Assembly (NCBI GenBank): GCA_963787835.1
Contig: CAWBEI010000002.1
Location: 1,344,001 to 1,408,000, forward strand
Direction: 5' to 3'
From: Ignavibacteriota bacterium
Lineage (GTDB): Bacteria > Bacteroidota > Ignavibacteria > Palsa-1295
DNA: 64,000 nucleotides
The notes under the pieces were generated by a model. The model searched no databases. It was given only the letters and a program-made list of their open reading frames with translations, and was not told the DNA's origin. Made by a program: the position numbers and the translations under genes. Of this stretch, positions 21,558 to 45,030 are shown in pieces. Position 1 is the first letter of the stretch, and each line of letters opens with the position of its first letter.

Positions 21558-21636
21558 TGTAGGGACGTGCTGCGCACGTCCGATTTCGTTTTTCAAAAAT
21601 AGTACATGGGGAAGGACGTGCGCAGCACGTCCCTAC
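21558..21636. repeat. GTAG-type REP doublet; supplies the coaBC stop codon
   Basis: GTAGGGACGTGCTGCGCACGTCC ... GGACGTGCGCAGCACGTCCCTAC inverted pair. The coaBC TAG is the TAG of GTAG. Confidence 0.85.
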
Positions 21637-22961
21637 GGTTTCGCGATAATTCTATTCAATATCTCCTTCGCGCATTCTTCCTTCGACATCAGCGGCAGCG
21701 CGATTCGCTCTCCCGATCTCGTAAAGATGGTGATCTTATTTGTATCGTATCCGAATCCTGCGCCTTCATCGGCGATATTGTTGAGTACGATCATATCGAG
21801 ATCTTTCTTCGCGAGTTTTTTCGAGCATAGGCTTCAGCTTCATCGCCTTTTTCGAGCGCGAACCCAACAATAATTTGTCCCGGCCGTTTCTTTTTTGATA
21901 TTTCCGCAAGAATATCCGGCGTTTTTCGGAGCGTGAGGGTCATCGTGTCGCCGGTGCCTTTTTTCATCTTGCCCTCGCTCGTGTGCTCGGGTGCGAAATC
22001 GGCGACAGCAGCGGACATAATGATAATATCGGCATCGGGAGCTTCGATGGATACGACTTCCAGCATTTCTTCGGCGCTTTCCACATCAATGCGAATAACC
22101 CCCTCCTGCGCAAGGAGGGGGAAGGGGGTGGTTGGCCCCATCACAAGTGTTACATCCGCGCCCATGCGCTTTGCCTCGATTGCTATCGCCGCCGCCATTT
22201 TCCCGCTGGAACGATTCCCAATGAAGCGCACGGCATCGATCGGCTCATACGTCGGCCCTCCGGTAATGAGCACACGCTTTCCCTGTAGCGCCGGGCGCAT
22301 CGTCGACGATGCTTTCCTCGCGGGTTCCCATTTTGCGGGAGTGGGAACCGGCGAGGACGCCGGCGCTACAAGAGTAGAGAATTTTTGAACAATATCCACT
22401 GGCTCCGGCATTCGGCCCATCCCTGTCAATCCGCTTGCAAGTGGACCAACCACCGGTTCGATAACGATCACACCATTCCGTTTCAGCCACGCTAGATTTT
22501 CCTGCACCACTGGTTGCAGCCACATATCCTCATCCATCGCCGGAACGATAACGAGTGGTGTACCTTTTGGCAGGGAAGCCGCGGCGAGTGTAACGGCATT
22601 ATCATAAATTCCCGCCCGCAGCATCCCGATCGCCGAAGCCGAGCATGGCGCAATGAGCATGGCATCGGCGCTGCGGGCAAGATGGACATGCCAGGTCTCC
22701 GAACTCCCCCTCCTATGCAGCGAAGCGGAATAGGAGGGGGCTGGGGGGTGGTCTTTTGAAGAAAAGATACTGCCCGATAACCTCCTGCCCCGTTGCTTCC
22801 GTCATTTCTTCACGGCTTACGAACTGCTCGGCGCTTTCCGTCATCACGCACGTAACGCTCGCACCCGAGCGCGCAAGCTCGCGCGCAACCGCTGGCGCTT
22901 TTATCGCCGCGATCGAGCCGGTTACACCGAGAATAATGCGTTTGTTTTGGGGGGATGACAT
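21633..22961 (-). CDS. coaBC: bifunctional phosphopantothenoylcysteine decarboxylase/synthetase; two apparent frameshifts (about 22773 and 21816-21821)
   Basis: ILGVTGSIAAIK, WHVHLARSADAMLIAP, PAMDEDMW, ITGGPTYEPIDAVRFIGNRSSGKM, AAVADF, VGFALE. After correcting the A-run the frame continues KDLDMIVLN...GFGYDTNKITI...LMSKEECAKEILNRI*. Confidence 0.9.
22097..22133 (-). repeat. short family C palindrome inside coaBC (encodes TTPFPLLAQEGV)
   Basis: AACCACCCCCTTCCCCCTCCTTGCGCAGGAGGGGGTT; same architecture as the 22704 and 41877 elements. Confidence 0.7.
22284..22370. repeat. GTAG-type palindrome in-frame in the CoaC-CoaB linker
   Basis: TGTAGCGCCGG...CCGGCGCTACA termini, 87 bp (29 codons), with nested GCATCGTCGACGATGC and GGTTCCCA/TGGGAACC hairpins. 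Confidence 0.85.
22704..22752 (-). repeat. family C 49-bp palindrome inside the coaBC N-domain
   Basis: ACCACCCCCCAGCCCCCTCCTATTCCGCTTCGCTGCATAGGAGGGGGAG; 46/49 identical to 41877-41925. Confidence 0.9.
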
Positions 22962-25077: not shown

Positions 25078-25171
25078 TTTACCACCCCTCACCGAACCCC
25101 TCCCCAGTTGGGAGCGGCAGAAGCAAAGGTCAACCGAACTCTCGTATTTACCAAAGGGTTTAGCTCCGTAC

Positions 25172-40760: not shown

Positions 40761-41294
40761 CTACAAACTATACCGCACCCCAACTGCGCCATCGAGATCG
40801 AGATCGAAAATGCGTTTGAAGGCAATGAGCGGTCCGGCCTCCACAAAATATTGAATGCGTGAGCTTTGGGGATTGATGTTCAATCCGAAGATGGTGCGTC
40901 CGCCGAACCCGAAACCGTTATCTTCCTGATTCGCAAAGCTTTCAAGGTGTGGTTCGCGGCTGAAGAACATTTTCGCACCTTTGCCTAAGGCCACCGCTAA
41001 CCCCGGCCCGGCATATTCGCTTGTGACTGCCGAATGGAACAGATTAAATTCCCACACATAATCGATCTGCAATCGAGGGGAACCGAAATAATCGGGACCG
41101 AAACCGACATCGAGGGCATTGGCTCCAGCAAACTGATATTTCATCGTCACGCCCAAGGGGTCGCCGATGATGAACCCGGCGCTGAGTCCGCTGGAGGCCA
41201 GAGTTTGTGCGCTTACCGGTACCGTTATGAAAAGGACGCTCAGGAGAACAAGCAGGATGGATTCGGCTCTATTTATCTTCTTTGGGATATTCAT
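40761..41294 (-). CDS. small outer-membrane beta-barrel protein
   Basis: Signal peptide, GFIIGDPLGVTMKY, amphipathic strands and terminal GAVGVRYSL. Confidence 0.7.
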   Translation of the reverse strand: MNIPKKINRAESILLVLLSVLFITVPVSAQTLASSGLSAGFIIGDPLGVTMKYQFAGANALDVGFGPDYFGSPRLQIDYVWEFNLFHSAVTSEYAGPGLAVALGKGAKMFFSREPHLESFANQEDNGFGFGGRTIFGLNINPQSSRIQYFVEAGPLIAFKRIFDLDLDGAVGVRYSL

Positions 41295-41450
41295 GTTGAA
41301 GTATAACTCCCCGGAAAGCAGGAAATAACAGGACTGAACGATCGCGGGACATAAGAAGTAGGGTGTCGCGGAGTCCGAGAAAGTCTCATCATCCGGCGCA
41401 ACATTTCCATGTTCTTCTATTGTTTACCTCGCCAGACTCCTGTAACCCTA

Positions 41451-41858
41451 ATGGCATACATACCCGAACGCAAACCGTTTAGCTCCTGGAATCAGCTTTT
41501 TCTGAAGTACCGGCGATACTCCGGATCGTGGGCGTACCTGCTTCAGCGCCTTACGGGCATTGGGCTGGTTACGTACCTCTTTATCCATATTTGGGCGCTT
41601 AGCTCGCTTACAAAGGGCCGCGCCGCGTTCGCCGAGGAGATGAAGACGTTCACCACCCCTCCATTCAAAGTAGCCGAGTGGCTGTTGGGCGCTCTTGTGA
41701 TGTTCCACGCTTTCAATGGCATCCGCATTGCGCTTGTCGATCTGGCAAATGGCGCGAAGTATCACAAAAAGTTGCTTGGCGCGGTGTGGGTCACGGGTAT
41801 TGCTGTAGTGGTAATGATGTTTTTTCTCATTTTTTCCAGCGAGATCTTCGCAAAGTAA
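41451..41858 (+). CDS. sdhC: succinate dehydrogenase cytochrome b556 subunit
   Basis: WAYLLQRLTGIGL...HI and FHAFNGIRI heme-ligand His motifs; 3 TMs. Confidence 0.88.
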   Translation: MAYIPERKPFSSWNQLFLKYRRYSGSWAYLLQRLTGIGLVTYLFIHIWALSSLTKGRAAFAEEMKTFTTPPFKVAEWLLGALVMFHAFNGIRIALVDLANGAKYHKKLLGAVWVTGIAVVVMMFFLIFSSEIFAK

Positions 41859-42296
41859 ATGGCTGATACTAAGAATACCACCCCCCAGCCCCCTCCTGTT
41901 CCGCTCCGCTCCATAGGAGGGGGAGCTTTATTACGCAGCTATTCGCGCCCGCGCAAGAGCGGCGCTCCGGCGTGGTGGTTGCAGCGCGTGACGGGGCTTG
42001 CGCTTGTGGTGCTGACCGTCGGGCATTATATTCTGATGCACTATAATCCCGTCAGCGGGCATGATTATGGCGAGACGGCCTCGCGGCTCGTATCGCCGTG
42101 GTTCAAGGGAATTTATCTTGGCTTTATCACGATCGGAATGTACCACGGTTTGCAGGGCATTTGGAATATCGTTCGCGATTACAAGTTGAAGCCAGCCGTC
42201 GGCCTCACCATTTTTGGAGTGATCTTTATCGCGGGTGTCATTTTTGTCGCAGTGGGATGGAATACCATTCTCACCTTCGATCCGTTGAAGCCTTGA
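41859..42296 (+). CDS. sdhD: succinate dehydrogenase hydrophobic anchor subunit
   Basis: WWLQRVTG, GHY and YHGLQGIWNIVRDY; ATG directly after the sdhC TAA. Confidence 0.85.
   Translation: MADTKNTTPQPPPVPLRSIGGGALLRSYSRPRKSGAPAWWLQRVTGLALVVLTVGHYILMHYNPVSGHDYGETASRLVSPWFKGIYLGFITIGMYHGLQGIWNIVRDYKLKPAVGLTIFGVIFIAGVIFVAVGWNTILTFDPLKP
41877..41925 (+). repeat. family C 49-bp palindrome translated in the SdhD N-terminus
   Basis: ACCACCCCCCAGCCCCCTCCTGTTCCGCTCCGCTCCATAGGAGGGGGAG, encoding TTPQPPPVPLRSIGGG. Confidence 0.9.
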
Positions 42297-42299
42297 TTC

Positions 42300-42357
42300 G
42301 TAGCCGTGACCTTTAGGTCACGAGTGATTATGACCGTGACCTGAAGGTCACGGCTAC
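42300..42357. repeat. GTAG-type REP doublet
   Basis: GTAGCCGTGACCTTTAGGTCACG ... CGTGACCTGAAGGTCACGGCTAC. Confidence 0.85.
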
Positions 42358-44039: not shown

Positions 44040-45030
44040 GTGGGATCATTTATCAAGAGCGCACATCGAACATTCGAGATCGAATCCAAAGCCATTCGAT
44101 CGAGCTTGGATAAGCTCGATGAAAAGGCATTCGATAAGACATGCACACTGGTAATGAACTCCTCAGGTCGCGTGATCGTGACGGGCGTCGGTAAATCCGG
44201 TCATATCGCAAACAAGATGGCCTCTACGCTGGCATCGACGGGAACTCCGGCGTTCTTTCTCCATCCAGCCGAGGCTGCCCATGGCGATGTTGGCATGGTG
44301 CAGAAGGAGGATGTCATTATCGTGCCTTAGCAAAAGTGGTGCATCGGATGAACTGCTGGTGCTCGTTCCATCCCTTCGCAGAATTGGCGTTCCCATTGTC
44401 GCTATCACCTTCGCAAATGAATCGAAGCTTGCCATAGAAGCGCGTGAGAGTGGCGGGGTAGTCCTTCTGCTTCACGTAGATGAGGAAGCCTGTCCGCACG
44501 ATCTCGCACCGACGGCTTCGACAACGGCCATGCTTGTCTTAGGCGATGCGCTGGCTGTGGCGCTATTGGAAGCGCGAGAATTTTCAAGCGCGGATTTTGC
44601 GCGGCTGCATCCTGCCGGTGCGTTGGGGAGGAAGCTTACGTTCTCCGTTCACGATCTTATGGCGAGCGGGAGCGCCGTTCCACGCGTCAAGGAGAATGCA
44701 ACGCTGAACGAAGTCATGATGGAAATGTCGCGCAAACGGTTTGGCGCAACGGCCGTGACGGTTGGCGAACAGCTTGTGGGAATCATAACGGACGGCGATC
44801 TCCGCAGATTTTTCGAGTCCCATGCCACGATCGATACCAGCGTGGTGATCGCGAAAGATCTGATGTCGCCAAATCCGCGCACGGTTTCCTCTTCTGCGCT
44901 TGCTATCGAGGCGCTTCATGCGATGGAGGACCGCGTGCCGAAGGTGATGCAGCTCCTCGTGCGAGGCGAGCATGGTAAGCTCGAAGGCATCATTCATATT
45001 CACGACATCGTAAAGGCAGGAATTTCGTGA
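44040..45030 (+). CDS. kdsD: arabinose 5-phosphate isomerase (KpsF/GutQ), apparent +1 frameshift near 44322
   Basis: GVGKSGHIA and HPAEAAHGDVG in one frame; LSKSG, APTASTT, HPAGALG and CBS pair in the next frame. Confidence 0.9.

Follow-up and report, generated by a model that had tools for sequence, protein, structure and literature searches.

The window, a stretch of 64,000 nucleotides from an Ignavibacteriota genome (G000), carries in sdhD one copy of a short repeat, made of a leader and a hairpin, that occurs about 50 times in the genome and in many cases lies in frame, across six reading frames, within conserved genes. The repeat is probably the gene-less partner of a cassette that encodes a solo DUF559 nuclease of the Vsr fold, and whose ends the repeat forms. 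In particular, the copies are numerous, are placed in frame and lack target-site duplications; inverted pairs of them flank a DUF559 gene; and the type of stem is paired with the nuclease subfamily across phyla. From these patterns, the DUF559 nuclease is a candidate, and likely the agent, for moving the repeat.

To our knowledge, repeats read in several frames within proteins have been described before, and what moves them is mostly unknown. The present analysis adds a held-out, subfamily-level test of the pairing between hairpin and DUF559 protein, together with the pattern of turnover at the occupied sites. The difference in frame between SdhD and CoaBC, taken alone, is ordinary, since in-frame palindromic repeats are already known from RPEs and intragenic REPs.

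The repeat in sdhD and coaBC

An earlier note on this DNA had described a 49-bp element that is translated in different frames in two genes, and its account of the sequence stands. The copy in sdhD matches the copy in coaBC, which like that gene lies on the reverse strand of the window, at 46/49 positions, with no similarity beyond either border, and the frame differs between the genes (TTPQPPP...GGG in SdhD, HPPAPS...RRG in CoaBC), the third sense frame containing TAG (Table 1). In both 49-nt copies, a C-rich leader of 12 nt precedes a stem of 9-11 bp, 9 bp in the sdhD copy, that closes a 17-nt loop. The junctions in sdhD recur on independent contigs from soil metagenomes, one spanning the 5′ junction (X1, 41200-41896) and another the 3′ junction (X5, 41882-42155), each with 0 differences. 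Further, metagenome contigs of other loci break at 41877 and at 41925/41926, and the ends of the element are thereby fixed.

Table 1. Coordinates of the genes and repeat copies in the window.
Feature	Position	Strand	Description
sdhC	41409..41858	+	PF01127; stop codon immediately before the sdhD ATG
sdhD	41859..42296	+	Sdh_cyt PF01127, residues 33-128; ATG adjoins the sdhC stop
49-nt repeat copy	41877..41925	+	5′ region of sdhD, codons 7-23; reads TTPQPPPVPLRSIGGG(A)
49-nt repeat copy in coaBC	22704..22752	-	Reads HPPAPSYSASLHRRG; variable segment just before WHVHLAR
Second repeat copy in coaBC, 36 nt	22097..22132	-	Reads TTPFPLLAQEGV; overlooked by the first reading
coaBC	21633..22961	-	PF02441 + PF04127; two frameshifts in the assembly (near 22773, near 21815)
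Extra base, likely assembly error	22773..22773	.	Missing in one contig; 13/14 orthologues -1 mod 3
C-rich leader + short hairpin, degenerate	25081..25117	+	Lies 5′ of the probable ftsH ATG; excluded from the copy count

The sdhD ATG directly follows the sdhC TAA, an arrangement also seen in the sdhD genes of three congeners (G002, G006 and G014), and inspection of the sequence agrees with the earlier note that no ATG, GTG or TTG occurs from this ATG up to the TTG within WWLQ. Conserved SdhD residues lie upstream of that TTG: Y28 is nearly invariant, and S34 and G35 are invariant in 20/20 aligned SdhD proteins. Because the next possible start would fall downstream of these invariant residues, reading through the element from the sdhD ATG appears to be the only plausible translation. 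In a structural model where just 2/20 alignment rows cover the first 14 residues, pLDDT is 48-54 for residues 1-30 versus 82-95 for residues 41-140, so that residues 1-30 are weakly predicted to be poorly ordered. The peptide is likely a tolerated N-terminal passenger that would be unstructured and have no function of its own.

A frameshift in coaBC lies about 20 nt upstream of the 49-nt element. A single contig (depth 3.7) from a near-identical strain lacks the extra base, and 13/14 orthologues from congeners show an offset of -1 mod 3 relative to the window at the frameshift. The CoaBC frame given earlier is therefore right, and the shift next to the element probably arose as an error of assembly. 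Indel errors in the assembly apparently also split, by frameshift, the 3′ part of coaBC (near 21815) and the gene at 44040-45030 of the window, which we take to be KpsF/GutQ-like.

The earlier note had also placed a degenerate relative of the element upstream of ftsH. A degenerate leader and hairpin are present there, but the stretch passed no family census and is closer to a sister hairpin family, its best matches in the genome being 20/22 to three CCCCTCACC...CTCTCCCC-type sites; it appears to be at most a degenerate hairpin of that sister family.

Copies in the genome and their reading frames

Three pattern scans of the genome returned 33, 40 and 58 matches; in the reversed genome, the second scan gave 2 and the third 1. 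Once composite re-counts (5) and rows of the sister family (3) are taken out of the third scan, 50 distinct copies remain. The 58 matches against 1 in the reversed genome indicate that the copies do not arise by chance. Their length is 36-49 nt in 42/50 cases, and some have a second hairpin in the leader. Leaders with a second small hairpin are found at G000:C2:404155, 912451, 1484657, 1514303 and 1799201, C4:215699 and C6:95203; the length changes of this variant preserve the frame in genes such as ppx. The exact pattern occurs in 10/14 congeners, 2/10 other family members and 0/16 more distant genomes.

Long ORFs wholly contain 37/50 copies in a genome with a rough coding density of 0.90; the element therefore has no preference for genes, yet avoids them far less than REPs do. 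For the host genes, 29 candidate ORFs were submitted to Pfam, 21 of which had a family, and the genes of the window were added. The resulting census by location and frame, which the earlier note had named as a check, places 27 copies within 21 Pfam-identified genes (one of them, in an amidohydrolase gene, was seen solely in the scan with 40 matches), and in every case the host gene stays intact. The genes for CoaBC, Ppx, TsaD, UvrD and NusB hold two copies each; the other hosts include those for SdhD, Tkt, UbiE, AccC, an amidase, an XerC-like protein, DUF354 and a portal protein. In NusB (G000:C2:915665-916582), the middle segment is 141 nt longer than in G002, G009 and G014 and is composed of several element copies. 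The element also occupies the same position in three type IX secretion C-terminal domains (G000:C2:328258, C4:143078 and C4:144897), where it was probably inherited through duplication of the domain rather than inserted three times.

By our tally, the three sense frames account for 6, 5 and 5 of the 27 genic copies and the three antisense frames for 2, 2 and 7. All six frames are thus used in identified genes, in keeping with a DNA-level repeat of which the peptide is a by-product; the earlier note had proposed a DNA or RNA-level element that generates new peptide. Moreover, in the register prone to TAG, this stop is present in 30/50 copies and missing from all 5 copies that are read in that register. 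Direct repeats of at least 2 nt, as expected of a target-site duplication, are present at the ends of only 3/40 copies. A replichore bias of the element in G000 is not supported (28 vs 18, p 0.18); in G002, each of the 8 exact copies is found on the forward strand of its contig.

These orientations bear on the proposal that copies are kept for a role in RNA, such as pausing, mRNA stability or the translational coupling of sdhC to sdhD. Its attraction is that the 9-11 bp stem folds, that the right arm of the sdhD element contains the Shine-Dalgarno-like word AGGAGG, and that this copy sits 18 nt past the coupled start. However, no start codon follows AGGAGG in sdhD, the genic copies are of mixed orientation (16 sense, 11 antisense), most orthologues have no element, folding is only weakly favoured by z-score (-1.25 and -2.06), and an Rfam search of two element loci at the gathering threshold gave no match, making such a role very improbable.

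Occupancy of the same sites in congeners

Over six masked proteins, identity among the congeners is 70-86%, and a species tree of six masked genes has weak support (66-68) among G000, G002, G006 and G014; orthologues with failed anchoring are left out of the site counts. In sdhD, 13/14 congeners have no intact copy, and the orthologues without the repeat are also without the peptide, as expected if the repeat brought it, which the earlier note had supposed. That the Pro/Gly-rich peptide is an adaptive new part of SdhD is hardly credible. The element does lie at the same position and in the same frame in G009, with possible remnants, judged by eye, in G002, G006 and G013. Against this, the G009 copy has a different loop and the middle of its peptide differs from that of G000, intact copies are missing from nearly all congeners, and six frames yield six unrelated peptides.

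Every site tested has both carriers and non-carriers among the congeners. For example, the element is present at the first coaBC site in 5/14 congeners, and several congeners carry it at the ppx, xerC, accC, DUF354 and tkt sites. The net gain in length is smaller than the element itself, as for the 36-nt coaBC copy, which adds 9 nt relative to 6/7 aligned non-carrier orthologues; some bases of the target must therefore have disappeared, either on entry or later. At 8 single-copy sites, which were picked from G000, all 31 congener copies are oriented like the G000 copy. Identical hairpins were found in 0/52 same-site pairs, and the loop class is common to 11/52 same-site pairs, 82/347 unrelated pairs and 25/66 same-genome pairs, so that a shared site makes a common loop class no more frequent than chance does, whereas a shared genome does (nominal Fisher p 0.02, the pairs being non-independent). 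This turnover fits two readings, old sites whose hairpin would have been replaced by the variant now current in the genome, or directed entry that recurred. The DUF354 and AccC sites look simply inherited.

The occupied segments vary in length and sequence even among non-carriers, where a different GC-rich palindrome or a short tandem repeat frequently takes the place of the element (by eye; ubiE, coaBC, tsaD and amidase). Unrelated palindromes or heptamer tandem repeats of this kind are seen at L111 (tsaD of G008), L178-L180 (ubiE) and L187-L190 (amidase). The sites may therefore be old or re-hit tolerant hot spots in variable segments of proteins, and the recurrently occupied ones chart insertion-tolerant positions in CoaBC, TsaD, Ppx, UvrD and UbiE. 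Of the two evolutionary claims of the earlier note, a recent spread applies more to the variant than to the sites, which are shared at the same position and orientation, with different loops, by relatives of only 70-86% identity. The second, selection only for an open frame, lacks support as worded, since the segments are already variable in non-carriers and the tolerance of the site acts as a filter too. No clean pair of an empty and a filled allele was found within one species, and for want of such a pair the junctions of insertion are blurred by divergence.

A solo DUF559 gene flanked by the repeat

About 75 kb beyond the window, at G000:C2:1483145-1483848, a solo gene for a 121-aa DUF559 protein (PF04480; C2:1483373-1483738) sits between inverted dimers of the element. 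No such gene was found where synteny would place it in G006, G014 and G002, and a second DUF559 gene in the genome (C5:324220-324540) has a different hairpin family. The residues E24, D53, H70 and D79 are invariant in 23/23 aligned DUF559 proteins, and their order and spacing match the catalytic set described for Vsr and I-Bth0305I (PMC3239194). The protein matches 3HRL (E 1.4e-16), and the classification in PMC3424549 places DUF559, Vsr and PDB 3HRL in one group. A single-sequence fold of the protein was poor (pLDDT 56.6), and a search with it returned no match at E<=0.001, the best row being 3HRL and 3R3P ranking 20th; both results are set aside here.

A detector of pyrimidine/purine hairpins within 300 nt of the gene, devised after inspecting the G000 flanks, found a hairpin at 22/31 DUF559 loci versus 5/500 random windows, 1/21 distal windows and 0/28 ends of sdh loci. 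Across the 22 loci, protein identity correlates with arm similarity (Mantel rho 0.44, reached in 0/5000 permutations). The detector was then left unchanged and applied to a held-out set of 71 new DUF559 loci, chosen by protein similarity alone and including close kin (many Hymenobacter and one duplicated sequence), where it fired at 53/71 loci versus 1/52 distal windows. Further, the exact stem of the SdhD element lies within 300 nt of the gene at 49/71 held-out loci (control 1/52), from 6 named phyla, and among class-level loci (n=30) it is found at 6/7 of those whose protein is nearest to that of G000 and at 0/23 of the others.

The pairing has exceptions. The hairpin is missing at 18/71 held-out and 9/31 initial DUF559 loci, and it is on both sides of the gene at only 19/71 held-out loci. 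Two congeners carry exact copies with no DUF559 match (4 in G003, 2 in G004), while G008 and G010 have DUF559 genes and no exact copy, so that copy number and cognate gene are mismatched in these four, all draft genomes in which the subfamily is resolved for some genes only. G006 is the genome richest in copies. The nearest relative of the G000 DUF559 protein, L082 (G009:C22:91865-92179), has an internal TAG near its end, in a genome with 25 exact copies. DUF559 domains are also fused into open frames of 894-1056 aa (L064, L085, L087 and G008:C61).

Linked DNA travels together, and co-variation is therefore no proof of recognition. The hairpins could instead serve the DUF559 gene as passive targets, into which it lands, or as cis-signals that regulate it, with host recombination or repair copying and converting the repeat. 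REPs are known targets of insertion sequences (PMC3733652), copies occur in genomes with no DUF559 match, conversion among near-identical copies requires no special enzyme, and repair fits replacement-type junctions that lack a target duplication. We nevertheless consider this explanation unlikely, because stem type follows nuclease subfamily over distant phyla, the catalytic residues of DUF559 are invariant, and a first entry into unrelated genes is hard to explain by host repair.

It is quite improbable that the element is an ordinary REP mobilised by a genomic Y1 (RAYT-like) transposase, although its size is REP-like and target duplications are absent. The genome has 10 Y1_Tnp matches at 9 loci, one of which has a copy about 260 nt upstream; however, 0/9 are bracketed by the element, and a lone census copy lies less than 1 kb from 1/9. 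Beside another Y1 locus, the neighbouring gene holds a degenerate copy seen in the second scan only, and several of these loci are accompanied by different palindromes of their own. The element also lacks the GTAG or CGTC end tag by which the text of PMC3733652 defines REPs.

In the literature searched, which included few subscription papers, no published link between DUF559 and a repeat was found. DUF559 genes are reported to be enriched among predicted inversion targets in the account of PMC9881135, for which the inverted hairpin flanks could be a reason.

Proposed mechanism

In the mechanism we favour, the DUF559 nuclease would recognise and nick its own hairpin, in extruded or single-stranded form, and repair would copy the hairpin from another locus, so that new copies replace a few target bases; the same copying would convert older copies to the variant now current in the genome. 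Nicking followed by repair-type copying would explain why target duplications are absent, why bases are lost and why variants turn over. Purifying selection would then remove copies that cause a frameshift, introduce a stop or strike structured parts of the protein, which would leave survivors at termini and in variable loops.

More broadly, and with somewhat less than even confidence, we propose that DUF559 genes and their hairpins form a widespread, undescribed class of selfish elements, an analogue of REP-RAYT built on a Vsr-fold nuclease. Each subfamily would recognise its own hairpin, seed miniature copies without target duplication and keep rewriting the copies in protein loops, thereby recoding the same loops of essential enzymes across the genus. 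If true, this would add a non-HUH route to the mobility of small repeats, and the pairing could reveal what DUF559, a common domain of unknown function, does. The subfamily-specific pairing of hairpin and DUF559 protein offers a directly testable system, consisting of one 121-aa protein and a 25-50 nt substrate, with sister pairs as controls of specificity.

Relation to known systems

Several known systems share part of this pattern. RPEs (Rickettsia palindromic elements; Ogata 2000, as reviewed in PMC10969869 and PMC3184786) are in-frame palindromes of about 105-150 bp in Rickettsia genes with a conserved encoded peptide, and intragenic GTAG/CGTC REPs, some of them N-terminal, are described in PMC3733652, according to which REPs are mostly intergenic. 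Like both, the element is a palindrome in many copies that keeps the frame of the unrelated conserved genes it occupies, whether at their ends or internally, with some genes hit twice; like coding palindromes of the RPE type, it is missing from orthologues, such as the 13/14 congeneric sdhD genes with no intact copy. Unlike RPEs, it has a core of 36-49 nt, another sequence and an unrelated host, is read in six frames rather than as one conserved peptide, and has a candidate partner nuclease. It differs from the mostly extragenic REPs in having 37/50 copies within long ORFs.

REP/REPIN-RAYT systems, as described by Nunvar 2010 (PMC2817692), are similar in that short hairpins stand as inverted units on either side of a small solo gene, and in that the repeat co-varies with the gene, forms dimers and scatters without target duplication. 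The partner here is a PD-(D/E)XK protein of the Vsr fold, DUF559, instead of an HUH tyrosine (Y1) transposase, and the element has no GTAG/CGTC tag and a 12-nt C-rich leader on one side. A precedent for a Vsr-fold nuclease that drives its own spread is I-Bth0305I, an EDxHD homing endonuclease (PMC3239194). The DUF559 protein has the same E-D-H-D catalytic set, as assigned by motif order, but is a nuclease domain alone, free-standing, outside introns and flanked by hairpins. Prokaryotic MITEs, in the review PMC10969869, are likewise non-autonomous, form stem-loops and are sometimes fused in frame; unlike them, the element is GC-rich with asymmetric ends, lacks target-site duplications, and no IS transposase partner was found for it.

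Right after sdhD, at 42300-42357 of the window, there is a GTAG-ended inverted pair with arms similar to those that flank a Y1 transposase gene at G000:C2:1492735-1493046. Given these similar arms, the genome likely hosts a classical REP-RAYT family alongside the DUF559 one.
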